Shown here piece by piece: positions 4,808-63,076 of a DNA stretch of 64,000 nt. How positions within the stretch are numbered: position 1 is the stretch's first letter; each line of letters opens with the position of its first letter. The translations under genes were made by a program, and so were the position numbers. The notes below the pieces were generated by a model that was given only the letters and a program-made list of their open reading frames with translations, was not told the origin of the DNA and made no database searches. Source of the DNA: an uncultured Alphaproteobacteria bacterium (GTDB lineage: Bacteria; Pseudomonadota; Alphaproteobacteria; Rhizobiales; Devosiaceae); contig OY969432.1 of NCBI GenBank assembly GCA_963699295.1, positions 3,531,001 to 3,595,000 of the forward strand. The letters run 5' to 3'.

Positions 4808-4937
4808 GCCTGATTGTTTCGTGCAAGATCGGCGTGGCGATTTGCAGGATTTTTGCCGCGCCGGTCTATAAAATCCAACAAACAAAAAGACGTTCGGCAA
4901 TCCAGGCCTGGGAACCCGGTTTGGCTACAGGAGGAAA

Positions 4938-6251: not shown

Positions 6252-6255
6252 CAAA

Positions 6256-6984: not shown

Positions 6985-7685
6985 GCCCGTTGCTTCAGAC
7001 CCGTCAGCTCAAGGTTTTTTATGGCGATTTCCAAGCCGTGTTTGGCGTGGACTTCGAAGTCAATGAAGGCGAGACCGTTGCGATCATCGGCGCCAATGGA
7101 GCCGGCAAATCGTCCTTTCTCAAGGCTCTTTCGGGTCTCGTGAAAAGCGATGCCAATTCCATCCTCCTCGATGGCAAGCCCATCGGCGGCACGCCCGCCT
7201 ACGAGATGGTCAAGTCCGGCATCGCCCTGGTGCCGGAAGGGCGCCGGCTTTTCCCCTCCATGTCTGTCGCCGACAATCTGCGCATGGGCGAAAACGGCAA
7301 AAGCGGCGACCGCGGCTGGAACTATGAAACCATCTGCGATCTGTTCCCGATCCTGCGCGAACGGGCCGGTCAGCTTGCGCCGACCCTGTCGGGCGGGCAG
7401 CAGCAGATGGTGGCGATCGGGCGTGCCCTGATCTCCAACCCCCGGGTCCTTCTGTGCGACGAGGTTAGTCTTGGCCTGTCGCCAGCGGCCGTCAAGGACG
7501 TCTATGCCGCCATCGGCGAGATCAAAAAGCGCGGAACCACGATCGTCATCGTGGAGCAGGACCTCAACGCAGCGCTCAGCGCGGCAGACCGCATATATTG
7601 TTTCCTCGAGGGCAAGGTCAGTCTGACTGGCCGTGCGGACGAATTCGATCGTTCGCAGATCCTCGCGGCATACTTCGGAAGCTAG
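6981..7685 (+). CDS. ABC transporter ATP-binding protein (LivF-like)
   Basis: Walker A GANGAGKSS, signature LSGGQQQM, Walker B VLLCDE. Confidence 0.9.
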   Translation: MSPLLQTRQLKVFYGDFQAVFGVDFEVNEGETVAIIGANGAGKSSFLKALSGLVKSDANSILLDGKPIGGTPAYEMVKSGIALVPEGRRLFPSMSVADNLRMGENGKSGDRGWNYETICDLFPILRERAGQLAPTLSGGQQQMVAIGRALISNPRVLLCDEVSLGLSPAAVKDVYAAIGEIKKRGTTIVIVEQDLNAALSAADRIYCFLEGKVSLTGRADEFDRSQILAAYFGS

Positions 7686-7687
7686 GC

Positions 7688-8545
7688 ATGGATATCGTCA
7701 ACACAATCGTCCAGGGCACACTGCTCGGGGGGCTCTATGCCCTGTACGCTGCAGGGCTTTCGCTGATCTTTGGCGTCATGCGCCTCATCAATCTCGCCCA
7801 TGGCGACCTGATCGTGCTTGCAGCCTTCGTGCTGCTGGCGATGGTAACCGCCTTGGGATTACCCCTGCCGATAGCCCTGCTCATTCTCCTGCCGTTTGCC
7901 TTTGCCATGGGCTGGGCGCTGCAGCGCTATCTGCTCAACCGCACGCTCGGTGACGACATTCTCCTGCCGCTTCTGGTGACGTTTGGTTTGCAGATCCTGA
8001 TCCAGAACGGCCTTCTGGTAGCGTTCAGCGCCGACAGCCGCAAGCTCTCGCTAGGGGCTATCGAAACCCAGTCGGTCAACCTGCTGGGCATGTCCATCGG
8101 TGTGGTGCCGCTGATCACATTCCTCGTCGCCATCCTCGTACTGGGCGCATTGAGCTATGTTTTTTACGGCACTGGGCTTGGTCGCAGACTACGGGCAACC
8201 TCGAACTCGACCGAAGTCGTGCAGCTCATGGGCGTCAACCCGCGCATCGTGTTTGCCATCGCGATGGGCATTTCCTTCGTCGTGCTGACGGTCGCCGCCT
8301 TCTTCATGGGGGTGCGCTCCAACTTCGACCCAAGCGTCGGCCCGGCTCGCCTGCTGTACGCCTTCGAGGCGGTGGTAATCGGTGGGCTCGGCAGCCTTTG
8401 GGGCACCCTGGCGGGTGGCGTGATCCTCGGCATAGCCCAGGCCATCGGCGCCCGCATCAACCCCGAATGGCAGATCCTGGCCGGACATCTGGTCTTCCTG
8501 GTGTTCATTATTTTCCGGCCGCGCGGCCTGTTTCCGAAGCAGTAG
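7688..8545 (+). CDS. branched-chain-type ABC permease (LivH-like)
   Basis: Hydrophobic, 285 aa. Start moved to ATG 7688 (MDIVNTIVQG), 2 nt after the upstream stop. Confidence 0.85.
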   Translation: MDIVNTIVQGTLLGGLYALYAAGLSLIFGVMRLINLAHGDLIVLAAFVLLAMVTALGLPLPIALLILLPFAFAMGWALQRYLLNRTLGDDILLPLLVTFGLQILIQNGLLVAFSADSRKLSLGAIETQSVNLLGMSIGVVPLITFLVAILVLGALSYVFYGTGLGRRLRATSNSTEVVQLMGVNPRIVFAIAMGISFVVLTVAAFFMGVRSNFDPSVGPARLLYAFEAVVIGGLGSLWGTLAGGVILGIAQAIGARINPEWQILAGHLVFLVFIIFRPRGLFPKQ

Positions 8546-8549
8546 GACC

Positions 8550-9647
8550 ATGACTGATAGCCTCAACACCGCCACCACGCCGCCAGCCGAAGGTCGCTAT
8601 CGCGTGGGTGTCGCAACGCGGACGTCCCGTGTGTTCGCCATCGTCGCCGTCATCTTGGTCATCGCCCTGGTATTCGCTCCGGCCTTCGCGTCGCGATCGA
8701 TGCTGCAAGATCTCATCCTGGTGTTTCTCTTGGCGTCCCTGGCCCTCTGCTGGAACCTGATGGCGGGCTATGCCGGCCTGATCTCGGTGGGACAGCAGGC
8801 CTTTGTCGGGCTGGGTGGCTACGCACTTTTTGCCCTCATCATCGTGGGCGGTTTTGATCCGCTGCTGTCAATCCCGATTGCCGCGATCATTGTTGCCTTG
8901 CTTTCGATCCCCGTCGGATCGCTGGTCTTCCGGATGCAGGGCGCCTATTTTGCCGTGGTCACCTGGGTTGTGGCCGAGGTCTTCCGGCTGGTTCTGGCCC
9001 AGTGGCGTGAGCTGGGTGGCGGCACCGGCACGTCGCTGCCGCGCTCGGCCACCAATGATATGATCGGCCTCGAATTCGTGGCCGACCTGTTCGGTGTCCG
9101 CTCGGCTGCAGCGCGCGAAATCATCATTTATTGGGCGGCGCTGATCACGGTCGTTCTGGTGGTGGGCGGATGCTACTATGTGCTGCGTTCGCGCATCGGG
9201 CTCGGGCTGCGTGCCATCAAGGATGGCGAAGTGGCGGCCCAAAGCGTTGGCGTCAGCACCACGCGCATCAAGTTCGCGATCTATGTGTTCGCTGCCTTTG
9301 GTGCCGGTCTGGTGGGTGCCATCTACTTCCTGCAGACCTCGCGTATTTCGCCCGACGCGGCTTTCTCGCTGCTCGATTGGACGGCCTACATCATCTTCAT
9401 CGTGGTGATCGGTGGCCTGGCCACAATCGAAGGGCCGATCATCGGCGCCATCATCTTCGTGCTGCTGCGCAATGCTCTGTCCGGCTTCGGACCCTGGTAC
9501 CTGATCGTGCTGGGTGCGCTGGGCATTGCTGTCATGCTGCTGGCGCCCAAGGGAATCTGGGGCAATTTTTCGCAATTCACCGGAGTTCATCTGTTTCCGA
9601 CGCGGCGACGATTCATGATCTCCGACTCCAAGGATACAGATAAATGA
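8550..9647 (+). CDS. branched-chain-type ABC permease (LivM-like)
   Basis: 365 aa multi-TM protein in the operon position typical of LivM. Confidence 0.85.
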   Translation: MTDSLNTATTPPAEGRYRVGVATRTSRVFAIVAVILVIALVFAPAFASRSMLQDLILVFLLASLALCWNLMAGYAGLISVGQQAFVGLGGYALFALIIVGGFDPLLSIPIAAIIVALLSIPVGSLVFRMQGAYFAVVTWVVAEVFRLVLAQWRELGGGTGTSLPRSATNDMIGLEFVADLFGVRSAAAREIIIYWAALITVVLVVGGCYYVLRSRIGLGLRAIKDGEVAAQSVGVSTTRIKFAIYVFAAFGAGLVGAIYFLQTSRISPDAAFSLLDWTAYIIFIVVIGGLATIEGPIIGAIIFVLLRNALSGFGPWYLIVLGALGIAVMLLAPKGIWGNFSQFTGVHLFPTRRRFMISDSKDTDK

Positions 9648-10501
9648 CAACCCCTGAGCAGACCCTCACCGACCAGGTCGTCGCCAGTTTCGACAAGGCC
9701 GACAATCCCCGCCTGCGCCAGGTCATGCAGTCGCTGGTGCGCCATCTGCACGCCTTCGCGCTCGACGTCGAACTCTCGATGCAAGAGTGGGAGCTGGCCA
9801 TTGGGTTCCTGACCCAGACCGGCCATATGTGCGACGACAAGCGCCAGGAGTTCATCCTGCTGTCCGACACGCTCGGCCTTTCCATGCTGGTGGATGCAAT
9901 CAATCACCGCTCCATCGAGGGGGCGACCGAAACCACCGTGCTCGGCCCCTTCTATGTGCCCCCACTCAAGGTGCTGGCCGCGGATAGTGATATTTCGGGC
10001 AGTGCCGAAGGCACGCCCATGCATGCTTCCTGCCGCGTGGTCAGCGCCGATGGACAGCCATTGGCCAACGCCTGGGTCGATGTCTGGCAAGCGGATGATG
10101 ACGGCTATTACGATGTGCAGCGGCCGGGACAGGAAGAAAACCTGCGGGCGCGCTTCCAGACAGATGCCGAGGGCAGGTTCTCTTTCTGGTCGATCGTGCC
10201 GACCGCCTATCCAATTCCCACGGATGGGCCGGTTGGAAAGATGTTGCAGTCGGCTGGTCGCCATCCCTATCGGCCGGCCCATATTCACTTCATGATCGGC
10301 AAGGAGGGCTTTGACACTCTTGTCACGCACCTCTTCATTGATGGCGACGACTATCTCAAAAGCGATGCCGTCTTTGGCGTCAAGGACCAGCTCATCATCC
10401 AACTGATCGATGCCGAGGCCGGCTGGAACGGCGGTGGCGAACTGGTTGGGGCGCACAAGAAGCTCTCCCATGAGTTTGGACTGCGTCCCAGTCAGTCCTG
10501 A
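9644..10501 (+). CDS. hydroxyquinol 1,2-dioxygenase (intradiol ring-cleavage dioxygenase)
   Basis: 285 aa. Has the intradiol core motif GRHPYRPAHIHFMI and the N-terminal helical domain typical of hydroxyquinol/catechol 1,2-dioxygenases. ATGA overlap with the upstream permease. Confidence 0.85.
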   Translation: MTTPEQTLTDQVVASFDKADNPRLRQVMQSLVRHLHAFALDVELSMQEWELAIGFLTQTGHMCDDKRQEFILLSDTLGLSMLVDAINHRSIEGATETTVLGPFYVPPLKVLAADSDISGSAEGTPMHASCRVVSADGQPLANAWVDVWQADDDGYYDVQRPGQEENLRARFQTDAEGRFSFWSIVPTAYPIPTDGPVGKMLQSAGRHPYRPAHIHFMIGKEGFDTLVTHLFIDGDDYLKSDAVFGVKDQLIIQLIDAEAGWNGGGELVGAHKKLSHEFGLRPSQS

Positions 10502-18284: not shown

Positions 18285-18414
18285 CCAACCAGTGTGACGC
18301 TGTCGGCGCCGGCCGGGAGGGCTGGCAGGACGAGCGGTTCTCCTCCCGGCCGCTGGCTCTACACGACGTGTTTTTCGGCGGGGAGCGTTTAATCAGCATT
18401 CGTTGAGGGATGCC

Positions 18415-18930
18415 ATGTACGAGTTTTCCTATTGGCTCAGCACCACGCCTGTAAGCCTTTCTCTGGCGCTGTCGGGATGGTTCATCCCGACCGCGCAGAT
18501 CATCCATATCCTGTCCATTGCGGCGTTGATCGGCTCGGTGCTGATAATCAACCTCAGGGTCCTGCGGGTGGGCAAGACCCATCCCGGTTTTGGCAATATC
18601 GTTGAGGGCTATGGGAACTGGTTCTGGGCGCCGCTCGGCGTGTTGCTCGCCAGCGGATTCATGCTGATCCTGGCCGAGCCCGAGCGTCAGCTCCTTGCCC
18701 TGTCTTTCTGGATAAAGATGGCACTGCTGATTGTCGCCTCGGCAATCTTTGCGCGGTTCCTGATGCGTCTCAAGCATGCCGAATTTGCCGATGGTGACTT
18801 CGTGTCGCCCAAGTACAAGGCCGCATCGGTGGCCAACCTCGTGCTGTGGGTCTGCATCATCTTCCTGGGGCGCTTCATCGCCTATGACGTACAGATCTGG
18901 GACAGCCTGTCCCCGATGGCCTATCTCTAG
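18415..18930 (+). CDS. integral membrane protein, DUF6644-like (paralog 1)
   Basis: About 4 TM segments. Shares ...H.L..A...G..L...LR..G... and the C-terminal W..II..GR.I.. pattern with the next gene. ATG 18415 follows GAGGGA. Confidence 0.6.
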   Translation: MYEFSYWLSTTPVSLSLALSGWFIPTAQIIHILSIAALIGSVLIINLRVLRVGKTHPGFGNIVEGYGNWFWAPLGVLLASGFMLILAEPERQLLALSFWIKMALLIVASAIFARFLMRLKHAEFADGDFVSPKYKAASVANLVLWVCIIFLGRFIAYDVQIWDSLSPMAYL

Positions 18931-18944
18931 AGAGGGTTTTTGCG

Positions 18945-19451
18945 ATGGATTTTCTTGTTTCTCTCGAGAGCAGCGCCTTTGCCGAGTGGCTGCAATTTTC
19001 TGCCTTTGCCTATCCAATGATTGAGTCGACCCATGTCTTGGGCGTGGCGCTGCTGTTCGGCACATTGCTGATCGTCGACCTGCGGCTTGTCGGCATCCGG
19101 TTGATGTCGCAGTCCATCAGTTCAATCACGCATGCGACGCTGAAATGGACCTGGCTCGGCTTTGCGCTGGCCCTCGTGACCGGGCTGATGATGTTCAGCG
19201 AGCGGGCGACGCACTACATCACCAATTTCGAGTTCCTCTCCAAGATGGGGCTGCTGGGGCTGGCGGGCGCCAACATGCTGGTCTTTGAATTCTTGACCCG
19301 CCGCAGTCTTGCGGCCTGGGATACCGGGCAGCCCATCCCGGGAAAGGTCAAGTTGGCAGGGTACCTGTCGCTGGCATTCTGGATCGGCGTGATCATCTTC
19401 GGTCGCCTCATTGGCTTTGCCGAGGCCCATGATCCGCTGGCCAGTTTGTGA
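18945..19451 (+). CDS. integral membrane protein, DUF6644-like (paralog 2)
   Basis: FAYPMIESTHVLGVALLFGTLLIVDLRLVG...WIGVIIFGRLIGF matches my recollection of DUF6644 proteins (unverified). Confidence 0.65.
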   Translation: MDFLVSLESSAFAEWLQFSAFAYPMIESTHVLGVALLFGTLLIVDLRLVGIRLMSQSISSITHATLKWTWLGFALALVTGLMMFSERATHYITNFEFLSKMGLLGLAGANMLVFEFLTRRSLAAWDTGQPIPGKVKLAGYLSLAFWIGVIIFGRLIGFAEAHDPLASL

Positions 19452-24681: not shown

Positions 24682-25188
24682 TCAGAGCGGGATGGAGAGC
24701 AGGTCCGCAACGGCGTCGACTACGACGGGGACGATATCATCAGCGCCCAGCGGGAGGTCCGCAAGGCGCTGGAGGACTGAATCGAGCGCTGGAACGCTGT
24801 CGGCCTCGATCGGCGCCAGGTCGAGCTTGCCGATCATGGTCAGGAAGTCGAGTTTCCCGAGGCGCCCGAGGCCATTGATCGACTGCATTGAGCGGTAGAG
24901 TTCGCGAAACACGACTGTCGGTTCTTGGCCCTTCTGGGAGTTGATAGCCCGGACGCGGGCGTGGACTGTCAGGTTCGCAGCTTCGATTGCGCCCGTCTGA
25001 AAACCGGCTTCGCACAGGAGTATTCCGCGATCTGCTCCAAGATCGTTCACGATCTCCCGCAGCCTCAGCACGTGGAGCTTGGTGACGGGCGACTTCCAGT
25101 GCTTGCATGCCAGCAACCAGAGCACTTCGTACCCGACATGCTTCGATCTCACCACGACATCCACGTCGTGTGTGGTGGGAGCCTTCCG
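24682..25188 (-). pseudogene. Mrr-like (restriction endonuclease fold) protein, N-terminally truncated
   Basis: The frame opens immediately after a TAG at 25189-25191 with ...PTTHDVDVVVRSK..LLACKHW..., the D...(Q/E/A)xK core of Mrr_cat. The upstream part of the domain is missing. Confidence 0.6.
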
Positions 25189-36383: not shown

Positions 36384-37429
36384 ATGAGCGACGACGCCAG
36401 GCAGGACCTGCTGACGGTCGAGGGCCTCAAGGCCTATTACCAGATGAACTATTTCGGCGTGCGCCGCGAGGTGCGGGCGGTCGACGACATCACCATGACG
36501 GTGCGCCGCAACGAGGTCTATGGCATCGCCGGGGAAAGCTCGTCGGGCAAGACCAGCTTCATCAAGGTGCTGGCCGCAGCCATGCGCCCGCCGCTGCGGA
36601 TCGTCGAAGGCTCGGTGAAATACGACTTCAGGAGCGGGCCGATCGACGTCGCTACCGCTTCACCGCAAGAGATCGAGGCGGTGCGCTGGAAGCAGCCTTT
36701 CCTACATCATGCAGGGCTCGATGAGCGTGCTCAATCCGGTGCGCCGCATCGGCAAGACCTTCCACGACTTTGCCGCCCGGCCCGCTGGGACTTAAGGGCG
36801 CGGCATTCGAGGCGCGTGTCGTCAACCATCTGGGGCGGCTGAAACTGCCGCCCGATATCCTGAGGGCCTATCCGCATGAGCTATCGGGCGGCATGCGGCA
36901 GCGCGTCACCATCGGGCTGGCCACGGTGTGCCACCCCGAGTTCGTCATTGCCGACGAGCCGACGACCGCCCTGGATGTGGTGGTGCAAAAGGAAGTGCTG
37001 GGGCTGATCCGCGAGATCCAGCGGGAGATGAGTTCCTCGGTCGTGTTCGTGACCCACGACATGAGCGTGCACGCCAATATCGCGGACCGGGTCGGCATCA
37101 TCTATGCCGGGCGGCTGGTGGAGGAGGGGCCGACGCGCCAGATGTTCTTTGCCCCCAAGCATCCCTACACCGCGCATCTGGTGGCGAGCCTGCCGCGCAT
37201 CGGCGACACGCAGCAGCGCCCCGCGCTGGAAGGGCGCCCGCCGAACCTGGCCGATCCGCCGCCGGGATGCCGGTTCCATCCGCGCTGCCCGCTGGCGATC
37301 GACAAATGCAAGACCGCAGACGCCGCCGCTGGAAACAGTGGCGCGCGGATCATCGCACCGCCTGCTGGCGCTGGCAGGATGTCGCGCCGCTGGTTCATGC
37401 CGGCGGCACCGGAAGGGGAGATGGCATGA
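36384..37429 (+). pseudogene. oligopeptide-type ABC ATPase (DppD-like), two +1 frameshifts
   Basis: Walker A GESSSGKTS. The frames join as ...AVRWKQ | [28 protein letters not shown] | [10 protein letters not shown]...LSGGMRQRV...[10 protein letters not shown]. Length is 1046 nt = 3n+2. Confidence 0.85.
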
Positions 37430-38338
37430 GCACGCTGCTCGATGTGCGCGACGTCTCCAAGCGCTTCACCATGGGCGGTATTTTCGGGCGCCAGAGCGTC
37501 AATGCCGTGGTGGACGCCAGCTTTTCGCTGAGCCTGGACCAACCCGAGATCTTCACCATCATCGGGGAGAGCGGCTCGGGCAAGACCACGCTGGCCCGGA
37601 TGATCCTGGGGCTGGAGGATGTTTCGCGAAGGGCAGATCCTGTTCCGCGGGCAAAAGGTCGATCGTCGCGGCGGCCGGGCCCAGCGGCTCAAATTCATGG
37701 CCAGCGTGCAGCCAGTGTTCCAGAACCCCTTCGAGGCGTTCAACCCGCTCAAGCGGATCGATCGCTATCTCGAAAGCACGGCGCGGCGGTTTCTCGACAC
37801 CACCGACAAGGCGCGCATCGATGGGGCGATGGACGAGGCGCTGCAGAAGGTGGGGCTGAGCCTGACGGAAGTAAGGGGGCGGTTTCCCCATGAAATGAGC
37901 GGCGGGCAATTGCAGCGCTGCGCCATCGCCCGGGCGCTGATCCCCAGCCCGTCGCTGCTGGTCGCCGATGAGCCGGTGCGCATGGTGGATGCGAGCCTGC
38001 GAATGAGCATCGTCAACCTGCTCAAGAGCCTGCGCGACGATCTGGGGGTGTCGGTGATCTACATCACCCATGATCTGGCGACGGCCTATTACATTTCCAA
38101 CCGCCTGATCATCATGCAGCGCGGACAGATCGTTGAAATGGGCGATGCCCGAACGGTGCTGGACAGCCCCGAGCATCCCTATTCGCAGCTGCTAAAGGCT
38201 TCGGTGCTGTCGACCGAGGATGCCGGGGACGGCAAGCTGGGCTCGGACCCCGTCATGGTGAAGCTGGCCGATGACCTGGCACGAAAGCTGGGACGACTGG
38301 TGCAGCGACCGGACGGGCGGTTGGTGCGGGTCTACTAG
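37426..38338 (+). pseudogene. oligopeptide-type ABC ATPase (DppF-like), one +1 frameshift
   Basis: Walker A GESGSGKTT in frame 1. After about 37615 the protein continues in frame 2 (...GQILFRGQKV...MSGGQLQRCAIARAL...LVADEP). Length is 913 nt = 3n+1. ATGA overlap with the upstream gene. Confidence 0.85.
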
Positions 38339-51207: not shown

Positions 51208-51777
51208 TCAGTCCTTGGCGCGCTCGACGTAGGAATTGTCTTCGGTGAGGATGACGATGCGGGTGCCGGCGCCGATATGGGGCGGGACCATGACGCGCAG
51301 GCCATTGTTGAGCACGGCAGGCTTGAAGGAGGACGACGCGGTCTGGCCCTTGACCACCGGTTCGGTCTCGACGATTTCGAAGGTCATGCGCTGGGGCAGT
51401 TCCAGGGCAATGGCGCTGCCTTCAAAGGTCTTGAGGTAAACCTTCATGCCATCGGTCAGATAGGCCTTCTGGTCGCCCACGACATCGTCGGAAACAGTGA
51501 TCTGGTCGAAGCTGACGGGCTCCATGAAGTGGTGGCCTTCGCCATCGGAATACAGATAATCGTATTCGCGCTCATCCACATCGGCCTTTTCGACCATCTC
51601 GACGGTGCGCCAGCGACCTACCACCTTCACGCCATCAGACATGCGGCGCATGGTGGCGTTGGTGACCGAGTTGCCCTTGCCGGGGTGCACGTTTTCAGCG
51701 GTGAGCACGACGTGCAGATTGCCGTCCTGCTCGACGACGTTGCCCTTGCGCAGCGAAGAGGCAATGACCTTGACCAT
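51208..51777 (-). CDS. efp: elongation factor P
   Basis: 189 aa. [19 protein letters not shown]...HPGKGNS (Lys at the loop tip) ...[15 protein letters not shown]... is canonical EF-P. Confidence 0.95.
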
Positions 51778-51901
51778 GAATTCTTCCTTGTTCGATCGGT
51801 TGGCGCATCGTAGAGGCTGAGACCGTCAGGGCGCCGAAAATTAGCTTTCGTGCGCCAACTATCCTATATCCGCGAAAATCTCCAGCCCGGCCGTCATAAA
51901 C

Positions 51902-52961
51902 ATGAGCATGCGCGATCAAATACCAGCGTCGCCCTGGTGGACCCCATCGGTGCATGCCGACCGGCGGCCCATCCTGTTGGCGCGCAACCGGATCGAGGCG
52001 CGCATCCGCAGCTATCTGGCCGACGAGGATTTTCTGCTGGTCGATCCGCCCGGATTGCAGCGCTCGCCGGGCAATGAAACCCATCTGCATGCCTTTGCCA
52101 CCAATATGATCGGCAATGACGGGGCAAGGGCAGGCGATGTATCTGCACACCTCGCCCGAATTCACCATGAAAAAGCTGCTGGCGGCGGGCGAGCAGCGCA
52201 TTGCCAGCTTGGGCCATGTGTGGCGCAATCGCGAGCGCAGCGCCTTGCACCATCCCGAGTTCACCATGCTCGAATGGTATCGGGTGGGCGAAGCCTATGA
52301 CGCGATCATTGCCGATTGCATCGCGCTGGTGCGGCTGGCGGCAGCGACGACGGGCGTGACCCAGTTGCGCTACAAGGACCGCACCTGCGATCCACTGGCC
52401 GAGCCGGAACGCTTGAGCGTCGTCGAGGCGTTCCGCCGTCATGCCGGGATCGATCTGTTTGCTACCATGGATGGCCAGGGCCAGACCGATGGCGAGCAGC
52501 TGGCCGCGCTGATGCAGGCGCAGGGGCTGGACGTGCCCGAGGACCGCAGCTGGAGCTATCTGTTCAGCCGGGTGCTGGTGGAAAAAGTCGAGCCGCAGCT
52601 GGGGACGGGGCGCATCACCGTGCTCGATCGTTATCCGGCAGCCGAGGCGGCGCTGGCGCGGCGCACAGCCGATGACCCTCGGGTCGCCGAGCGGTTCGAG
52701 CTTTATGCCTGCGGGGTGGAGCTGGCCAATGGCTTTGGCGAGCTGACCGACCCGCACGAACAGCGCCGCAGATTTGCCGCAGAGATGGACGAAAAGCTGC
52801 GCCTTTATGGCGAGCAATACCCGCTCGACGAGGATTTTCTGGCAGCGCTCGCCCTGATGCCGGAGGCAAGTGGCGTGGCGTTGGGATTTGATCGTTTGGT
52901 GATGCTGGCAACCCATGCCCCCAAGATAGACGCCGTATTGTGGGCGCCGGTGGCCCAGTGA
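51902..52961 (+). pseudogene. epmA: EF-P lysine aminoacylase EpmA (GenX/PoxA), one +1 frameshift
   Basis: The N-terminal 72 aa are in one frame (...HLHAFATNMIGNDG). The remainder (QGQAMYLHTSPEFTMKKLL...HHPEFTMLEWY...ELANGFGELTD...GVALGFDRLVML) is in the next frame. The junction is a GGGG run near 52110-52113. Length is 1060 nt = 3n+1. Confidence 0.85.
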
Positions 52962-54008
52962 GCGCGCACCGATCCATCAAGAGCGTGAGCGACCTGCAGG
53001 CGGCGGGGCTGGTCAGCGATGTGAGCGGGCTGGACGCGGTGGCGCAAAAATACGCCATCGCCATTACCCCGGCCGTGGCCGCGCTGATCGACGTCAATGA
53101 TCCCTGATGATCCGATGGCGCGGCAGTTCGTGCCGCGACCCGAGGAATTGGTGACGACGCCCGAGGAGCGCGACGACCCGATTGGCGATCTCAGCCATTC
53201 GCCGGTGGAAGGCATTGTGCACCGCTACCCCGACCGGGTGCTGCTCAAGGCGGTGCATGTGTGTCCGGTCTATTGCCGGTTCTGCTTCCGCCGCGAAATG
53301 GTGGGGCCGCAGGGGCTTGGCACGCTGAGTGCCAGCGAACTCGATGCGGCTATCGGGTATATCGCCGAGCACAAGGAAATCTGGGAAGTGATCCTGACCG
53401 GCGGTGATCCGCTGGTGCTGTCGCCGCGCCGCGTGCGCGAGTTGATGTTGCGGCTGGCGGCGATTGAGCACGTCAAGATCGTGCGCTTTCATACCCGGGT
53501 GCCGGTGGTCGAGCCGGAGCGGGTGGACGATGCCATGGTGAGTGCGCTCAAGGCCAGCGGCAAGACCACGTATCTGGCCGTGCATGCCAATCATCCGCGC
53601 GAATTCACCGCCGAGGCGCGCACCGCGATGGCCCGCCTAGCCGATGGCGGCATTGTACTGCTCAGCCAGTCGGTGCTGCTGCGGGGCGTCAACGACAATG
53701 TCGAGACCCTGTCGGCGCTGATGCGCGGCTTTGTCGAGAACCGCGTGCGGCCCTATTATCTGCACCATCCGGACCTGGCGCCGGGCACTAGCCATTTCCG
53801 CGTCAGAGTGGATGAGGGGCAAAAACTGGTGACGGCCTTGCGCGGCAATATTTCGGGGCTGTGCCAGCCGACCTATATTCTCGATATTCCCGGCGGGCAT
53901 GGCAAAGCCGAAATCGGCGCGGCGCAGATCACCGGCAGCGACGGGTGTTTTACCGTGCGCGATTTCCAGGGTGGCGAGCACCGCTACCCGCCCATTGGCC
54001 AGGACTGA
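52958..54008 (+). pseudogene. epmB: EF-P beta-lysylation protein EpmB (KamA-family radical SAM lysine 2,3-aminomutase), one +1 frameshift
   Basis: GTG 52958 overlaps the epmA stop. The first 48 codons (...KYAIAITPAVAALIDVNDP) end at TGA 53105. The protein resumes in the next frame with DDPMARQFVP...CPVYCRFCFRR. Length is 1051 nt = 3n+1. Confidence 0.85.
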
Positions 54009-54924: not shown

Positions 54925-55428
54925 ATGCTGGAACAAAGGGTGTTGAGCTGCCAATGCGGGCAGGTGCGGATGGTGGCGCAAGGCGCGCCGATCCTGCGCG
55001 TCGTGTGTTATTGCGACGATTGCCAGGCAGCGGCGCGGCAACTTGCGGACGGTGGGCTGGCAGAGCCGATCGCCGATCCCGACGGGGGCACGCGACTGGT
55101 CCTGTTCCGCCAGGACCGGGTGGTGACGCAGCAGGGGATGGACCAATTAGTGCCGCACAAGCTGCGCGCGGGATCACCAACCAACCGGGTGGTGGCGGGC
55201 TGCTGCCAGACGCCCATGCAGATCAATTTCGACAAGGGGCCGCACTGGGTGTCGTTTTTCGAGCGGCGGGTGCCGGGCAAGCTGCCGCCGATCTATGCGC
55301 GCATTCAGACGCGCTTTCGGACGTCCGACTTGCCGCTGCCCGGCGACGCGCCGGTCTACAAGACGTTTCCGCTGATGTTCATCGGCAAGATGATCGCAGC
55401 CAAGATCGCCATGATGGTGGGGCGGTAG
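54925..55428 (+). CDS. GFA (glutathione-dependent formaldehyde-activating / CENP-V) family protein
   Basis: Cys pattern SCQCG...CYCDDCQ...GCCQTPM. Confidence 0.7.
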   Translation: MLEQRVLSCQCGQVRMVAQGAPILRVVCYCDDCQAAARQLADGGLAEPIADPDGGTRLVLFRQDRVVTQQGMDQLVPHKLRAGSPTNRVVAGCCQTPMQINFDKGPHWVSFFERRVPGKLPPIYARIQTRFRTSDLPLPGDAPVYKTFPLMFIGKMIAAKIAMMVGR

Positions 55429-56657: not shown

Positions 56658-56684
56658 GGCCCCGCTTATAACAAAAACGGGGCC
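56658..56684 (-). terminator. hairpin between GST-like gene and fabV
   Basis: Stem GGCCCCG-13 nt-CGGGGCC, with an A/T-rich tail on the minus strand. Confidence 0.45.
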
Positions 56685-56707: not shown

Positions 56708-57358
56708 TCAGGCGGCGTCTTTGGCGCGACCGGCGGGGAAGATGCCCGACATCACCATGAAGCCGGGAATGCGGCGTACGCGGTCGGTCCAGCGGCGGAT
56801 GGCCGGGTAGTCCTGGCGCGAAATGCCACCCTCTTCCGAGAGCATGATATAGGGGAAGCAGGCGAGATCTGCTGTGGTGGGGTGCGCCGGGCTGCATAGC
56901 CAATCACGGCCCTGCTTTTCGCCGAACCACAAATGCTCGTCGATCAGCCGGAACAGCCGATGGGCGCCGCGCTGGGCCTTGTCGATGTCGAAATCATAGT
57001 CATAGCCCAGCGCCAGGCGAGCGGCCGACGAGGTCGAGGTGATGTCATCGGCAATCGAGTGCCAGCGCAGGATTTCCGCGGTGACCGCGGGGTCATTGGG
57101 GAACCACTGGCCGCTCTCGTCATATTTCTTGGCGAGATAGGCCAGGATCGCGCCGCTATCGGGGATGATCAGGTCATCATCCTTGAGCACCGGCAGCTGG
57201 CCGAACGGATTGAGCTTGAGGAACCAGTCGGACTTGTGCTCGCGGCCGGGGAAGAACTCTACCGGCACCAGCTCATGGCGGACCTTGAGGATGTTGAGCA
57301 GCAGCCGCACCTTGTAGCAATTGCCCGAGAGTTCGAAGTCGTAAAGGGTAATGGCCAT
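56708..57358 (-). CDS. glutathione S-transferase-fold protein (NdmE-like position)
   Basis: 216 aa GST fold (MAITLYDFELSGNCYKVRLLL...FGQLPVL..). Its start lies 1 nt after the stop of the upstream reductase gene. Confidence 0.8.
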   Translation of the reverse strand: MAITLYDFELSGNCYKVRLLLNILKVRHELVPVEFFPGREHKSDWFLKLNPFGQLPVLKDDDLIIPDSGAILAYLAKKYDESGQWFPNDPAVTAEILRWHSIADDITSTSSAARLALGYDYDFDIDKAQRGAHRLFRLIDEHLWFGEKQGRDWLCSPAHPTTADLACFPYIMLSEEGGISRQDYPAIRRWTDRVRRIPGFMVMSGIFPAGRAKDAA

Positions 57359-57359
57359 G

Positions 57360-59069
57360 TTAAATATCCAGGATCAGGCGAGGTGACTTGGCCCGCGATA
57401 CGCAGGTCATCATGCAGGTGTTCGACGCCTTCTCGGTGTCGTTGAGATAGACGTCCTGATGGTCGACCTCCCCTTCCATCACGGTGGTGAGGCAGGTGCC
57501 GCAGGCGCCCTGTTCGCAGGAGGATGGAACGGTCAGGCCCGCCTCGCGCATCACCTCGAGAATGGTCCTGCCGGCGGGAACCTGCAGGGTCATGGCCGAG
57601 CGGGCCAACTCGATCTCGAAGCTCGAGCTGTCGTCGATCACCTTGTCATTCTTGAAATATTCAAAATGGATCGCTTCATCCGGCCAACCCTGGGCGGTGG
57701 CGCTGGTGCGCACGGTTTCGAGCATCGGCCCGGGGCCGCAGACATAGACGTGCTGGGCCATGGAGTGGGGGCCAAGCAGGGTGGCGATGGTGGGCGCGAC
57801 ATCGGGCACGGCGACGCCAATATGGAAGATCACCTTGCCGCGCAGGGCGTTGAGCTGATCCTTGAACGCCACCTGCTGCTCGTCGCGCACGAAATAGTGC
57901 AGTTCGTAGGGCAGGCTGGACTGGTCGAGGAAGCGGGCCATCGACAGCAGCGGGGTGATGCCGATGCCACCGGCGATCAGCACTGTGCGGGTGGCGTCGC
58001 GGCGCAGGGGGAAGTTGTTGCGCGGCTCGGAAATGGTGAGCAGGTCGTTTTCGCGCACGCTTTCCACGAGCACCTTGGAGCCGCCCGTCGAGGCGTTTTC
58101 CTGCTTGACGCCAATGATATAGCTCAGCAGCTCGCCGGGGCCATTGGTGATGGAATATTGACGGATCAGGCCGTTGGGCAGGTGCACGTCGATATGCGCG
58201 CCGGGCTGGAAAGTGGGCAGATGGCCATCGCGGGCGGCCAGCTCGAAGCCCACCACGCCATCGGCGGTCTGCCATTTGCGCTTGACCAGGACGGTCAGCG
58301 TATTGCCGCGCGGAATGGCAATATCGGGCATGGTGGAGAGTTCGACCGACACCTTGTCGAAGCTGGGCTCCAGCGGAGCGGGAGGGAGCTTTTTGGCGGC
58401 GGCGCGCTCGACCTGCTCGCGCAGCTTGGTCAGGGTATCGTTATAGGCGCGCAAGGTTGCGAGCGGTTCGTCCGGGATGCCGGCGAACAGGCCGCGGATT
58501 ACCGAGCGACCGGCATCGACGGGCTGCACGAAGAACCGCGCCAGGCCCAGCCGCACCGACAGGCCAGGCAGGATATCGGCGGGCTGATCATCGGGCGCCA
58601 GGCGCGCCAGTGCTGCGACCACATCGTCGGGCTCGGCATTGACCGGCAACGGGCGCAGGGGGAACCAGTCATTTGCCGCATCGGCGCCGGGGAACGAGGC
58701 GTAAGGTGTGTCATCGGTGGCGGCCGACCAGATCAGGCCGAACGCTTCGCGCACCGGATATTTCTTGTTCTCGATGCGGCGGGAGGGCGCGTCGGCGGGG
58801 TGGGCCGGAATATAGGTGCAGCCAGCCGAGCGGTTGGCATAGCGCCAGCCGTGATACTGGCATTTGAGTTCCTGGCCTTCATTGATGCCGATCGACAGGC
58901 GGACGCCGCGATGCAGGCAACGGTTTTCCCAGACGTTCACATTGCCATCATCGGCACGCCAGACCGCGAGTTCACGGCCCAGCAACTGCGCCTGGTAGAC
59001 GTGGCGGAACGGCAGGTCTTCGGCGCTGGCAATGGGATACCAGGTGGGGTCGGCGAGAGTCAGGGGCAT
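57360..59069 (-). CDS. Rieske [2Fe-2S] domain fused to FNR-type flavin reductase and plant-type [2Fe-2S] ferredoxin (NdmD-like)
   Basis: Rieske motif CLHRGVRLS...CQYHGWRY at the N-terminus. Flavin/NAD motifs RQYSITN and GGIGITPL. C-terminal CEQGACGTC...C ferredoxin. Confidence 0.85.
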   Translation of the reverse strand: MPLTLADPTWYPIASAEDLPFRHVYQAQLLGRELAVWRADDGNVNVWENRCLHRGVRLSIGINEGQELKCQYHGWRYANRSAGCTYIPAHPADAPSRRIENKKYPVREAFGLIWSAATDDTPYASFPGADAANDWFPLRPLPVNAEPDDVVAALARLAPDDQPADILPGLSVRLGLARFFVQPVDAGRSVIRGLFAGIPDEPLATLRAYNDTLTKLREQVERAAAKKLPPAPLEPSFDKVSVELSTMPDIAIPRGNTLTVLVKRKWQTADGVVGFELAARDGHLPTFQPGAHIDVHLPNGLIRQYSITNGPGELLSYIIGVKQENASTGGSKVLVESVRENDLLTISEPRNNFPLRRDATRTVLIAGGIGITPLLSMARFLDQSSLPYELHYFVRDEQQVAFKDQLNALRGKVIFHIGVAVPDVAPTIATLLGPHSMAQHVYVCGPGPMLETVRTSATAQGWPDEAIHFEYFKNDKVIDDSSSFEIELARSAMTLQVPAGRTILEVMREAGLTVPSSCEQGACGTCLTTVMEGEVDHQDVYLNDTEKASNTCMMTCVSRAKSPRLILDI

Positions 59070-59157
59070 AGGGTCATCCGAGACTGTAAAAAAGATCGCG
59101 CCACGATCGGATGAATCGGGGAAGCGCTGCCTTGGCGTACGAGGCGGCGCATGAACG

Positions 59158-60069
59158 TCAGCTGGCTTGCGGGATCACGCCGTAGGTGATGCCCTTCTGG
59201 CTGAGCCAGCGACGGTAGGCGATGGCCGATTTGTCGGCCCGGATCGGGGTTTCCGAACGCGGGTCGAGCGGCAGGCGCTTGGGGAACTGGTTTTCAAGGA
59301 TCGGCTTGTCCTGCCCGAAAATGGTCTGCTGGAAGCGGCGCAGGTCTTCGAGGCTGGAGGTGGAGTCGACCATCGACTGCATCAGGTGGGCGCGGCAGCG
59401 CTCCTGGGTCATCGGCTGCAGGAACAGCCCGATCACGTCCATGCGGCTTTCATCCTCGGGGCAGGATTTGTAGAGCACCGAGCAAAAGGGATGCGGCACG
59501 CGGTAGATATATTCCACCTCGATGGCGCCGGTGGCGGACATGGCGGCGCGCGGCTGGATGAACTTGCACTTGGTGGCCAGCACCTCGTCGCGTTCCTCGG
59601 AGACCTCGACGTCGTATTCCTTGACCTCGGTATGCGGCTCGGCGCCCAGAATGTCGGTGTGGACATAGGGGAAATGGCCCATGTCGAGAAAGTTCTCGAC
59701 GGCGCGCGGGGCCGACACATGCAGGCTGATGGAGCCGCAATTCATGTTCCGGCGGTCGGGTTCGGCAAACTCGGGGATCGGGAACAGATCGCTCGCAGGG
59801 GTGCCAAGGCACGTCCAGACATAGCCATAGGCGGTTTTGACCGGCAGGCGCTCGAGCACGGATTCAGGATCGATTTCATCCCCGTGCTGTTCGTTGGTGC
59901 GGCGCCACACGACGGGCAGGCCGGCCGTGTCGCGGGTCAGCGCAATAGGGGTATCCAGCAGCATGGTGGTGGTCACCTGGCCGACGGGAATTTCATCGGT
60001 GGCGGCGATCACGTGCCACAGATTGAGAATGACAGGATCGATAGCAGACATGGTAACGGTCATGGGCAC
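59158..60069 (-). CDS. Rieske-oxygenase catalytic (mononuclear non-heme iron) subunit lacking Rieske ligands (NdmC-like)
   Basis: Iron motif ENFLDMGHFPYVH. The N-terminal ~95 aa contain no CxH...CxxH (a single Cys). 303 aa. Confidence 0.75.
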   Translation of the reverse strand: MPMTVTMSAIDPVILNLWHVIAATDEIPVGQVTTTMLLDTPIALTRDTAGLPVVWRRTNEQHGDEIDPESVLERLPVKTAYGYVWTCLGTPASDLFPIPEFAEPDRRNMNCGSISLHVSAPRAVENFLDMGHFPYVHTDILGAEPHTEVKEYDVEVSEERDEVLATKCKFIQPRAAMSATGAIEVEYIYRVPHPFCSVLYKSCPEDESRMDVIGLFLQPMTQERCRAHLMQSMVDSTSSLEDLRRFQQTIFGQDKPILENQFPKRLPLDPRSETPIRADKSAIAYRRWLSQKGITYGVIPQAS

Positions 60070-60176: not shown

Positions 60177-60839
60177 TCAGGCCAGGCCCCGCAGCATGGC
60201 TTCGCGGGTGGCCGCGGCGCGGCTGGTGACCGAGAGCTTCTGGTAGATGACCTTGACGTAGGAGGCTATCGTTTGGGGTTGCAGCCCCAATTGCCGCGCC
60301 ACTTCGGCAACGGTCATGCCGCGCGCCAGCAGGGCCAGCACCTCGGTTTCGCGCGGGCTGAGATCGCTTTCGGGCTCGCTCTTGGGGGGCGCATTGGTGC
60401 GGAAATGGCTCAGCATGCGGTGGGCGATGGAGGGCGAGAGTGGAGGCTCGCCGGCCTCGATGCGCAGCAGATAGCTGACCAGCAGATGGCTATCCTCGTC
60501 CTTGAGCACATAGCCGCGGGCGCCAGCTGAGATGGCTTCAAACAGATGCGCGTCATCATCGTAAATGGTGGCAACGACCGGCAGGACCGTGGGGAACTGG
60601 CTTTGCAGGCGCCGCACGATATCGATGCCGGAGCCGTCGGGCAGGCCGATGTCAATGATCGCCAGTCCCAGTTCCGCGCCGCGCTCGTCGAGCCAGGCAT
60701 GGGCCGCCTTGAGGGAGCCGACGGTTGCGACCTCCCGGGCGGGGAAGGCCGTCGACAGCACACCCAGCATCCAGTCGCGGGTTTGGGGTTGATCCTCGAT
60801 AAGCAGGCACAGGGGAGCTGGGGTGGACATTGGGATCAT
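60177..60839 (-). CDS. response regulator, NarL/FixJ (LuxR-type HTH) family
   Basis: REC domain (LLIEDQ...DIGLPDGSG) plus C-terminal LSPRETEVLALLARGMTVAEVARQLGLQPQTIASYVKVIYQKL. Confidence 0.9.
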   Translation of the reverse strand: MIPMSTPAPLCLLIEDQPQTRDWMLGVLSTAFPAREVATVGSLKAAHAWLDERGAELGLAIIDIGLPDGSGIDIVRRLQSQFPTVLPVVATIYDDDAHLFEAISAGARGYVLKDEDSHLLVSYLLRIEAGEPPLSPSIAHRMLSHFRTNAPPKSEPESDLSPRETEVLALLARGMTVAEVARQLGLQPQTIASYVKVIYQKLSVTSRAAATREAMLRGLA

Positions 60840-63076
60840 GCGCGTCTGGTCGCGGACAAGGGCTGGCCCAACGCGTCCGGTTTTGGCGGGCGTTCGGTGA
60901 GGACCAGGGGAATGTCGAGCGAGATGGTGGTGCCGGGAGTGGAATTGCCCAGCGACAGGGTGCCGCCCAGGTCTTCGATGCGATGCCGCAGATTGCGCAG
61001 GCCATAGCCCACCGACTGGCCGGCGATGGCGGTGGCGGGGAGGCCCGCGCCATCATCGGCAATGTCCAGGGCCAGCGAGCCGGCACTGATATCAAGGGTC
61101 ACCACGACGCGGGCGGCGCCGGAGTGGCGAATGATGTTTGAGATGATCTCGCGCACGGCCGAGGTCAGCGCCTTGTGCAGGCGATAATCGAGTTGCACCA
61201 TGGCCAGGTCTGGATCGGGCAGGGGCCAGTCCAGCGCGATATCTGCGGCTTCGAGCCGGCGCGCGGTTTCATAGCGGATTTCGGCGAGCACGCGATCGAG
61301 TGGCGCCTGTTCCCCCGACAAGCCGCTGACAATGGCGCGAATATCCATGAGGGCGGCTTGCAGCATGGGGCGGGTCGCGGGGTCGGCAGTATGCAGGCCC
61401 GAAAGCAGGCGGGCGCCCACATCGTCGTGCAGGTCGCGCGCCATGCGGCGGCGCTCTTCGCCGACCCCGCGGATATAGGCCTCGCGGCCATCTTCGGCGC
61501 GGGCCACCAGCGTCACCAGTTGATGGGCGAGCTGCTGGTGCGGTTGCGAGAACAGCCCGCGCCCGGCGAAGGGACAGGACAGATGCAGGGCCGGAGAACC
61601 CGCTACGGCGGGCACGTGCATGGATTGCCCGTCGCTGCTGATGCTGACCGCGGCGATATCGTCGGCTTCGCTCATCTTGATCGGATCAAACACCCGGCGC
61701 AGCAGCAATTGCCAGCGCGTGGTGCGTTCCGCCGCCGAGGGCGCAAAGGCAACGTCGATGGCGGCCGAGAACAGCTCGTGCTGCTTGATGTTGCGGTAGG
61801 TCGACATATTGCGGGCGGCAACGTCGCGCAGCGGCAGATACACAAAGCCGATGGTCAGGATCGACAATGCCAGGGCGGGCGCGCTGTCGATCGACAGGAG
61901 GGTCACGAGCAGCGCGTCGATGACCACGAGGAGCAGCGTGCCCAGCGTATAGAACAGCACGCGATAGGCCCAGTCCCCCATTTCGAACAGGCGGAACCGG
62001 TTGAGGCCCAGCGCCAGGCCCACATAGATCACGAGCAGCAAACCTATGGCGTGGCTCTGCGAGACGCCGAAAGACATGTCGAACAGGATCGGGGTAACCC
62101 CGATGACGATATAGGCGCTGCACCCCACCGTTACCGAAAGCGCCAGCCACCCCAGCGCCGCGCGATCGGCCGGATTGCGGCGCGTGACCACCCATTGGGC
62201 ACCGACGGTGGCTATAATGACCAGGGTGGCAATGCCGATAAAGCTCGTCACCTGATCGGGGGCGCCGGTCCAACCCGCCAGATTGCACAGCGTCAACGCG
62301 GCCAGCAGGACCGGCAGGATCCATAGCCAGACGGGGCGCACCATGCGGGTGGGGTAGACCAGAAACAGCCCGATCAGGGCGAGGTTGAACAGGGTCAGCC
62401 CGAAATTGTCGATCGCCAGCAGCGTGCGGAACATTTCAGCGGGCAGGGCTAGTCCGCGATTGGCAAAGATCGCCGAAGACGCCGTGGACAGCAGCAGGCC
62501 GATGGCGCTGGCCAGAAACAGCGACGGCGCCAGCGTGCGCGGCCTGGCCGACCACACCCATCCCGCGATCAGCACACAGCTCACCCCGGTGAGCAATTGC
62601 ACCCAGAACCCGCTGGGCAGGCTGAGCACGGGGCGGGGACGAGGGGAGACGGTCACAGCGGCGTCAACGCCCGCCGGCGGATCATGCAGGTAAAGCGTGA
62701 CGGGGCCGTGCAGCAGCGCGGAGATCGCCTCCTGTCGGCGCAGGAAATTGTCCAGAGCGGCCTGGGTACCAAGGGTTTCGGGGCTTTCCACAAGATCTTC
62801 GGGGAGCAGCCCAAACGGGGGCGGGCGCGCCTCGTTTGCCGTATTGGCAACGGGGCCAATGGCCAGGAGCCTCGTGCCCGCGAGCTGGCCGATGCCGGGT
62901 GACAGCCATTCTTCGGTGCCCCGGATGAGCACGCCGCCATGATCGTTGCTCGCCGCCAGTTGCAGCCCCAATTCGGGCTGCGACGTAGCGGCGGACATGA
63001 CCAGCCCTGATACAGCCAGACATAACAGTGTCAGCAGGACCATTAACAGGCCGGGGGATCTCCCGTTCAGCTTCAT
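60836..63076 (-). CDS. multi-TM sensor histidine kinase (HisKA_3 + HATPase_c)
   Basis: 746 aa: signal/TM, a periplasmic ~130-aa domain, about 8 TM helices, H-box RRRMARDLHDDVGARL, and C-terminal ATPase motifs (NIIRHSGA..., DDGAGL, GYGLRNLRHR). 4-nt overlap with the regulator. Confidence 0.85.
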   Translation of the reverse strand: MKLNGRSPGLLMVLLTLLCLAVSGLVMSAATSQPELGLQLAASNDHGGVLIRGTEEWLSPGIGQLAGTRLLAIGPVANTANEARPPPFGLLPEDLVESPETLGTQAALDNFLRRQEAISALLHGPVTLYLHDPPAGVDAAVTVSPRPRPVLSLPSGFWVQLLTGVSCVLIAGWVWSARPRTLAPSLFLASAIGLLLSTASSAIFANRGLALPAEMFRTLLAIDNFGLTLFNLALIGLFLVYPTRMVRPVWLWILPVLLAALTLCNLAGWTGAPDQVTSFIGIATLVIIATVGAQWVVTRRNPADRAALGWLALSVTVGCSAYIVIGVTPILFDMSFGVSQSHAIGLLLVIYVGLALGLNRFRLFEMGDWAYRVLFYTLGTLLLVVIDALLVTLLSIDSAPALALSILTIGFVYLPLRDVAARNMSTYRNIKQHELFSAAIDVAFAPSAAERTTRWQLLLRRVFDPIKMSEADDIAAVSISSDGQSMHVPAVAGSPALHLSCPFAGRGLFSQPHQQLAHQLVTLVARAEDGREAYIRGVGEERRRMARDLHDDVGARLLSGLHTADPATRPMLQAALMDIRAIVSGLSGEQAPLDRVLAEIRYETARRLEAADIALDWPLPDPDLAMVQLDYRLHKALTSAVREIISNIIRHSGAARVVVTLDISAGSLALDIADDGAGLPATAIAGQSVGYGLRNLRHRIEDLGGTLSLGNSTPGTTISLDIPLVLTERPPKPDALGQPLSATRRA

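Follow-up and report, generated by a model that had tools for sequence, protein, structure and literature searches.

The caffeine-degrading NdmCDE system of Pseudomonas putida CBB5 distributes the parts of a Rieske oxygenase over three proteins: NdmC lacks the Rieske cluster, NdmD carries an extra one, and NdmE, a glutathione S-transferase (GST)-like protein, is needed for solubility and activity (Summers et al, 2013, via PMC4408171). Among characterised systems the split design is unique to NdmCDE (PMC4408171; PMC13237722). The structure of the complex was still unsolved according to a 2026 note (PMC13237722), and NdmC goes unmentioned in a 2025 review of the field of Rieske oxygenases (PMC12445004). 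Here we describe a locus of the same design on contig OY969432.1 of an uncultured Devosiaceae bacterium (assembly GCA_963699295.1), hereafter the Devosia locus. It lies within a stretch of 64,000 nucleotides (positions 3,531,001 to 3,595,000 of the contig), which is called the window below and supplies the coordinates of the locus. The original prediction, made from these letters, had assigned an NdmC/NdmD/NdmE architecture to three genes, here termed A (catalytic subunit), B (Rieske-reductase fusion) and C (GST-fold protein), and had named NdmCDE as the only known system with this three-way split. The literature agrees on the latter point; however, ndmCDE-like clusters of unknown function had already been found by BLAST in 2013 in 18 organisms, mostly Sinorhizobium and Mesorhizobium (PMC4408171), so that the design itself is no novelty. 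A literature search for the characterisation of these rhizobial clusters returned nothing relevant.

Our analysis indicates that the locus is probably a functional Devosia operon for an NdmCDE-type split Rieske monooxygenase whose catalytic subunit belongs to a clade apart from NdmC (A2), with N-demethylation of a methylated purine as the likely reaction. What is added to the earlier observations is the breadth of the family, the distinction between the A2 and NdmC clades, the association of A2 loci with purine catabolism and a model of complementary degeneration of two oxygenase subunits.

Cofactor sites of the A, B and C proteins

The three co-directional open reading frames predicted on the minus strand were all confirmed. 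For gene A the predicted frame of 303 aa (59158-60069, from a GTG at 60069) stands, but the true start is probably the ATG at 60063, giving a catalytic oxygenase subunit of the VanA_C/NdmC type of 301 aa (59158-60063). GAGGTG stands ahead of this ATG, which is also where public gene calls of a 99-100 % identical protein begin. Residue numbers of A are nevertheless counted from the GTG throughout.

Residues 119-291 of A match Pfam VanA_C at 2e-22, while the same scan detected no Rieske domain and matched nothing at the N-terminus. Inspection of the first 95 residues revealed one cysteine (C87) and two histidines (H19, H62) and neither a CxH nor a CxxH motif, as had been predicted. When A was aligned with the saxitoxin hydroxylase SxtT, residues 8-56 corresponded to SxtT 2-52 and residues 62-298 to SxtT 93-333. 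Approximately 40 residues that include the cluster ligands are thus deleted from A. The identical gap appeared in all seven A-family proteins aligned with three full-length NdmA/B-like or HpxD-like oxygenases. In the catalytic domain A retains ENFLD129-MG-H132-FPYV-H137 and Q253-D254, and D129, H132, H137 and D254 are invariant both in the cross-genus alignment of seven sequences and in an alignment of 45 Devosia sequences. The best solved-structure match of this domain was SxtT/GxtA (PDB 6wn3, 6wnc; 1.5e-31). H132, H137 and D254 are the predicted iron ligands and D129 the predicted bridging residue, and the N-terminal domain of A reads as a vestigial Rieske fold from which the cluster has been lost.

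Gene B (57360-59069, minus strand, stop codon at 57360-57362) encodes 569 aa. The complete Rieske motif, FNR-type reductase and plant-type ferredoxin predicted for it were each recovered. The Rieske [2Fe-2S] domain occupies residues 1-134 (58668-59069); residues 9-92 match Pfam Rieske at 9e-19, the ligands are C51-L-H53 and C70-Q-Y-H73, invariant in alignments of 12 and of 61 sequences, and the best solved-structure relatives are again SxtT/GxtA (2.5e-22). At the other end of the protein, phthalate dioxygenase reductase (PDR; PDB 2pia) aligns end to end with residues 261-569 at 2.7e-67. Here, flavin mononucleotide (FMN)-binding and NAD(P)H-binding domains of the PDR type span residues 261-483 (57621-58289), with the motifs R303QYS and G367GIGITP and Pfam matches to NAD_binding_1 and DmmA-like_N, and are followed by a plant-type [2Fe-2S] ferredoxin in residues 484-569 (57363-57620; Pfam Fer2 at 4e-15) with the ligands C518-x4-C523-x2-C526...C556. 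All cluster ligands of B are invariant in the alignments, and its ferredoxin domain is 40 % identical to that of CBB5 NdmD (PDB 6icm_D; E 2e-20).

Between the Rieske and reductase parts of B lie about 125 residues (135-260; 58290-58667) that match nothing in Pfam. A profile alignment with hhalign placed B 10-262 (72 sequences) on the A family with a probability of 98 % (E 6e-14), colinear with A 18-271, and the gaps were reciprocal: A lacks the cluster loops of B, whereas B lacks A 125-210, which contains the iron site. Beta-strands and a long helix make up the middle region, and the strand and helix around its FFVQPVD motif ('FVQPVD...') are common to both proteins; this region alone aligned at E 9e-6. 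It lacks the 2-His-1-carboxylate site, and no histidine or aspartate within it is invariant in the 12- and 61-sequence alignments. Because conserved iron ligands are missing, the N-terminal region of B appears to serve electron transfer; a catalytic subunit at this place would have spoken against the original prediction.

An AlphaFold2 model of B 1-262 (61 sequences) had a mean predicted local distance difference test score (pLDDT) of 74, with residues 135-225 at 82-96. In a Foldseek search this model matched alpha subunits over their whole length, with GxtA/SxtT at E 3e-12 and template modelling (TM) scores of 0.53-0.58 over 273-310 columns of chains of 311-329 residues, followed by carbazole dioxygenase, NdmA/B and KshA. 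NdmD-type proteins, too, have an invariant Q182 and P183 in the FVQP motif, indicating that the remnant is ancestral to the whole family, and free-standing Rieske proteins reach into the remnant region as well. Together, alignment and model portray the N-terminal 260 residues of B as a whole, catalytically dead alpha subunit and not as an excised Rieske module. As far as profiles and predicted fold can tell, we conclude, two paralogous alpha subunits, A and the N-terminal part of B, underwent complementary losses, of the Rieske cluster in A and of the iron site in B.

Other arrangements of these domains were encountered among the relatives. Rhizobium leguminosarum (L008, 9339-9989) encodes a free-standing 216-aa protein of Rieske domain plus remnant, followed by A, a GST gene, an amidohydrolase gene and a BMP-type transporter. 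In Aestuariivirga (L041, 10825-11520) a free-standing 231-aa protein of the same composition precedes the GST gene. These two variants have no fused reductase and constitute four-way split systems. Conversely, a 616-aa protein of the representative library (P0263) joins a Rieske-less A-type domain directly to an FNR/ferredoxin reductase and contains no Rieske domain.

Gene C (56708-57358, minus strand) encodes an NdmE-type GST-fold protein of 216 aa with a Pfam GST_N match at 1e-17 and a weak GST_C match. The motif LYD[FY]ELSGNCYK and the LPV cis-proline are nearly invariant in the family. The glutathione-binding pair of helix 3 is D-S in Devosia and D-A in rhizobia and the caffeine-cluster protein; in one actinobacterial member, residues between beta2 and alpha2 are deleted. 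The sequence fits a mainly structural role such as that proposed for NdmE, and glutathione binding would still be compatible with it. As predicted, C begins 1 nt past the stop codon of B (TAA-c-ATG) and is probably translationally coupled to it. Downstream, a consensus scan identified a terminator-like hairpin (56658-56684, minus strand) with a 10-bp stem and a T-rich tail, 24 nt past the stop codon of C and upstream of fabV; it is the probable end of an A-B-C transcript. A sigma-70 scan found no promoter-like site, a result that is uninformative for an alphaproteobacterium, and neither the window as a whole nor the leader region of A gave an Rfam match to a riboswitch or any other RNA family. 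The G+C content of the module is in line with that of its surroundings.

These features suggest the following path, in which the cofactor sites are taken from the sequence and the flow between them from the respective families. NAD(P)H would reduce FMN in the C-terminal reductase module of B, from which electrons would pass to the plant-type [2Fe-2S] cluster and then to the Rieske [2Fe-2S] cluster near the N-terminus of the same protein. They would next cross the subunit interface through Asp129 of A to its mononuclear Fe(II) (His132, His137, Asp254), where O2 would be activated. The head-to-tail contact between Rieske cluster and iron that characterises an ordinary alpha3 oxygenase would in this way probably be restored by A together with the N-terminal part of B, with C, by homology to NdmE, most likely serving as a GST-fold scaffold or solubility partner. 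The N-methyl group of a methylated purine base (methylxanthine, methylguanine) would be hydroxylated and lost as formaldehyde, and the resulting xanthine or guanine would, judging from gene context in other genera, enter purine catabolism or salvage.

Conservation, spread and clade placement

The 120 best matches of A (77-100 % identical) all come from Devosia where the organism is named, and across the genus the module occupies the same chromosomal neighbourhood, with fabV and the elongation factor P (EF-P) genes nearby. The ratio of nonsynonymous to synonymous substitution rates (dN/dS), calculated with four Devosia orthologues, was 0.10-0.40 for A, C and each part of B; for C it was 0.11-0.21 against the three closer orthologues and 0.36 against that of L046. 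All parts of A, B and C are under purifying selection, and a decaying or chance arrangement of genes was rejected on the dN/dS values together with the synteny.

A scan of one genome per species found a relative of A in the genomes of at least 587 species, and the best 80 of these loci were fetched. Fifty-nine extended at least 3.6 kb downstream of A and were used to count synteny. In 53 of them Rieske plus FNR/Fer2 and GST genes follow A in the same direction; Aestuariivirga, with its free-standing Rieske protein and then GST, accounts for one of the rest, and A stands alone in the remaining five. The GST gene is thus syntenic with its partners, as the original prediction required. Among the fetched loci are those of Devosia, Labrys, Aminobacter, Mesorhizobium, Sinorhizobium, Paracoccaceae, Granulosicoccus, Acidimicrobiia, Nocardioides, Pseudonocardia, Streptomyces and Saccharopolyspora, placing the module in Alphaproteobacteria, Gammaproteobacteria and Actinomycetota. 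At the level of 50 %-identity clusters the A family is compact (119 clusters at E <= 1e-30). The nearest relatives with an intact Rieske domain are two unnamed oxygenases of about 340 aa (P0273 and P0277), which are 41-43 % identical to A and carry CPHRG...CxYHGW.

For comparison with the caffeine system, the caffeine cluster of Paraburkholderia caffeinilytica, found by tblastn of A against plasmids, was used as a proxy for CBB5 NdmC, NdmD and NdmE; a search with the 86-aa ferredoxin domain of 6icm_D had returned only stand-alone ferredoxins. In this cluster two NdmA/B-like oxygenase genes and a GntR regulator gene are followed by A, B, C, frmA and fghA, and the ferredoxin domain of its B protein is 72 % identical to that of CBB5 NdmD. 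The Devosia proteins are homologous to their counterparts over the full length, with identities of 46 % for A, 39 % for B and 57 % for C, which bears out the predicted architecture. Identity of A to the NdmA/B-like oxygenases is about 25 %, and A groups with the Rieske-less subunits (45-49 %) and not with enzymes that rely on a separate reductase.

One interpretation of this homology is that the locus encodes a true NdmC orthologue, a 7-methylxanthine N7-demethylase that, like the one in P. putida CBB5, serves the breakdown of caffeine or theobromine. The shared three-protein architecture and the full-length similarity of all three proteins would be expected in that case. However, a neighbour-joining tree of 119 A-family sequences separated two clades. 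Clade A1 unites the NdmC-type proteins of P. caffeinilytica and P. putida pKF715A (L001, L002) with the upstream member of rhizobial tandem pairs, while A2 holds Devosia A, the second rhizobial paralogue and every single-A locus with B and C. Pairwise identities of Devosia A are 62-67 % with A2 proteins but 45-49 % with A1/NdmC-type proteins (45-46 % with the NdmC type itself), and the window contains no full-length ndmA/ndmB-like oxygenase, frmA or fghA gene. On the strength of the tree placement and the pairwise identities, Devosia A is not an NdmC orthologue, and a dedicated caffeine enzyme at this locus is very unlikely. By sequence, A2 is an uncharacterised clade that is sister to the NdmC/A1 clade. 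7-Methylxanthine itself could still be the Devosia substrate, a case that N-demethylation of methylated purines by an A2 enzyme already covers.

Tandem A1/A2 genes were seen on Sinorhizobium meliloti pSymA (L003, 9074-10885), where the two paralogues, about 47 % identical, precede just one gene each for the Rieske-reductase and the GST protein. The same arrangement occurs in L029-L033, L036-L039, L042-L053 and L089. It suggests that in rhizobia one electron-transfer and scaffold pair serves two catalytic subunits.

Genomic context and candidate substrate

The original prediction had found nothing nearby to suggest methylxanthine metabolism and had left the substrate open. The window is indeed silent on this point: its 64 kb contain no purine, nucleoside-transport or formaldehyde genes and no full-length ndmA/ndmB-like oxygenase, frmA or fghA gene. 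The context of A2 elsewhere, at loci free of an A1 paralogue, however, narrows the candidates to methylated purines. In Mesorhizobium, genes for a GntR regulator and a BMP-type ATP-binding cassette (ABC) transporter precede A-B-C, which are followed by guaD (412 bits against a guanine-deaminase equivalog cut-off of 375) and a gene for an enzyme of the xanthine dehydrogenase (XDH) family. In Nocardioides, a xanthine/uracil-permease-OHCU-decarboxylase fusion, the flavin/Fe-S and molybdopterin subunits of XDH and an amidohydrolase are encoded ahead of A-B-C, and in Streptomyces A-B-C are followed by a permease-OHCU-decarboxylase fusion. OHCU decarboxylase is an enzyme of urate catabolism. The fusions are about 650-690 aa long (Streptomyces L082, 13201-15261; Nocardioides L056, 1771-3735). 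Granulosicoccus has A-B-C, a BMP-type ABC transporter and an amidohydrolase, and Primorskyibacter, which lacks an A1 paralogue, carries frmA and fghA directly downstream of A-B-C. Among 60 non-Devosia loci a BMP binding protein was encoded at 37, frmA at 14, guaD at seven and an NCS2 permease at five.

Much of this context, namely guaD, OHCU decarboxylase and the nucleobase permease, would suit a hydroxylase of a purine ring carbon equally well, that is, a molybdenum-independent xanthine/hypoxanthine hydroxylase like HpxDE, and purine hydroxylases of the HpxD type are distantly related to A (27-29 % identity). Nevertheless, a complete XDH adjoins A-B-C in Nocardioides, where a second xanthine hydroxylase would be redundant, and frmA/fghA lie directly downstream of C in many loci, Primorskyibacter included, pointing to release of formaldehyde. 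Moreover, NdmC, the nearest characterised relative in architecture, is a demethylase (PMC4408171). Ring hydroxylation thus appears quite unlikely, and the redundancy with XDH and the formaldehyde genes make N-demethylation of a methylated purine the best inference. Literature searches for a demethylase of 7-methylguanine or of the Rieske type returned nothing relevant.

Alternatively, the Devosia module might have taken on a substrate other than a purine, acting for instance as an N- or O-demethylase of an amine, a betaine or an aromatic compound, and such a shift would explain the lost purine context. In 20 loci of the main Devosia clade no purine, transporter, formaldehyde or ndmA/ndmB-type genes adjoin the module, and the wider VanA_C family acts on many types of substrate. 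Yet an identity of 62-67 % to A2 proteins from purine clusters usually implies the same or a close substrate, and no genes of another pathway are linked to the module either. The neighbours in the main clade are an Ldh_2-family dehydrogenase, a 371-aa protein that matches no family, and fabV. The Ldh_2 protein, encoded beside the module in most Devosia though not in this window, best matches ureidoglycolate dehydrogenases at a sub-threshold score, which also argues against a non-purine substrate. Ureidoglycolate dehydrogenase catalyses a late step of purine catabolism. On balance, recruitment to a non-purine substrate seems rather unlikely.

Several points weigh against our preferred interpretation, an A2-type demethylase of methylated purines. 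The main Devosia clade, this window included, has no purine, transport or formaldehyde neighbours, and the substrate proposed for Devosia is carried over from relatives that are 52-67 % identical. The linkage to frmA/fghA is found mostly at loci that also possess an A1 paralogue. Clade A2 has no characterised member, and the tree that defines it carries no support values and includes only two NdmC-type sequences. As to structure, the complex of A, B and C, the contact between its subunits and the part played by the GST protein are all proposed from sequence; the Rieske loops of the B model are of low confidence and the Foldseek superpositions have high root-mean-square deviations (7-13 A); and an AlphaFold2 monomer of A, built from a Devosia-only alignment, reached a pLDDT of 46 and was left out of the fold search.

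The split design is common, being found in hundreds of species of three large bacterial lineages, and the largest branch of the family is not the caffeine enzyme and sits in clusters for purine catabolism. The evolutionary and structural model that accompanies it is duplication followed by complementary loss. More tentatively, and with the balance of probability still somewhat against it, A2 enzymes may be widespread, unrecognised methylpurine demethylases (in the genomes of at least 587 species) that return, for example, 7-methylguanine or 7-methylxanthine to the guanine or xanthine pool and that act as GST-scaffolded, pseudo-symmetric hetero-oligomers of two half-dead alpha subunits, with the Devosia operon as a minimal stand-alone example. 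If so, the methylated purines would come from RNA and DNA turnover or from plants and marine organisms. Confirmation of the substrate would fill a missing step in the bacterial recycling of methylated purines and provide new demethylases for methylxanthine biocatalysis; the Devosia locus by itself is an ordinary but clean additional member of the family.

Some neighbours of the module were considered as functional links and set aside. Two genes away, a 167-aa protein (54925-55428, plus strand) shows a partial match (residues 8-36) to GFA, the family of glutathione-dependent formaldehyde-activating enzymes, and one to DUF6151; it was not adopted as a link to formaldehyde since the Pfam match is partial and the position is not conserved in other Devosia. 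Directly upstream of A (60177-63076, minus strand), genes for a LuxR/NarL-type response regulator and a 746-aa HisKA_3 histidine kinase, in the first ~540 residues of which no domain was matched, lie on the same strand. Regulation of the module by this pair was set aside because it adjoins A in some Devosia only, the Ldh_2 gene intervening in most genomes of the genus. The Granulosicoccus module likewise has a kinase/regulator pair upstream.

Further features were observed elsewhere in the window. At 51208-54008, elongation factor P adjoins a truncated class-II lysyl-tRNA-synthetase-like gene and a radical S-adenosylmethionine gene, an EpmA/EpmB-like arrangement for EF-P lysylation that is conserved near the module in other Devosia. 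Co-directional genes at 3836-10501 (plus strand) encode an AraC-type regulator, a branched-chain-type ABC transporter and an intradiol (catechol-type) dioxygenase, and two DUF6644 genes stand in tandem at 18403-19451. Within a stretch of lower G+C content (24-30 kb), a 160-aa open reading frame (24682-25164, minus strand) combines fragments of an Mrr-type restriction endonuclease and of a phage-type thymidine-hypermodification protein (aGPT-Pplase3/ADDT) and may be the remnant of a defence or mobile-element gene. Two adjoining short open reading frames at 36770-38338 (plus strand), downstream of genes for an SBP_bac_5 binding protein, two permeases and an arabinofuranosidase, give partial matches to ABC-transporter ATPases (profile positions 87-137 and 39-136) and may be frameshifted or truncated ATPase genes.

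Comparison with known Rieske systems

With NdmCDE of P. putida CBB5 the Devosia locus shares a Rieske-less catalytic subunit, an FMN/NADH/ferredoxin reductase extended by a Rieske domain and an adjoining GST-like gene. It differs in that its catalytic subunit belongs to A2 while NdmC-type proteins fall with A1, in the absence of ndmA, ndmB, frmA and fghA from the window, and in its chromosomal position among housekeeping genes. The closest relatives outside Devosia are the rhizobial ndmCDE-like clusters, which have the same gene order and identities of 62-67 % for A, 57 % for B and 67-68 % for C. Most rhizobial loci, however, have tandem A1 and A2 genes that share one B and one C, whereas Devosia has only A2. 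Their neighbourhood further encodes a GntR regulator and a BMP-type ABC transporter, often along with frmA/fghA or guaD, and none of these neighbours is present in Devosia.

The more conventional systems, NdmA/NdmB with NdmD, VanAB, DdmC, GbcAB and CntAB, resemble the Devosia proteins in catalytic fold, in the D-x2-H-x4-H...D iron site and in the PDR-type reductase. In NdmA/NdmB and VanA-type enzymes, by contrast, the Rieske cluster is intact in the oxygenase and a GST partner is not needed, and their identity to A is about 25 %. A conventional two-component system pairs an oxygenase that has its own Rieske cluster with a Rieske-free reductase, and Devosia A and B depart from it on both counts. 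HpxDE of Klebsiella and Pantoea, a molybdenum-independent xanthine/hypoxanthine hydroxylase, is likewise of the Rieske type and acts on purine bases, but HpxD is annotated as a hydroxylase subunit and not as an N-demethylase. HpxDE is not known to include a Rieske-reductase fusion or a GST partner. Finally, the saxitoxin hydroxylases SxtT and GxtA are the best structural match whether the query is the catalytic domain of A, the Rieske domain of B or the fold of the B model. Unlike the Devosia proteins, SxtT/GxtA, P0273 and P0277 are single-chain alpha3 enzymes that hold in one polypeptide both of the cofactors that the Devosia system appears to have divided between two subunits.

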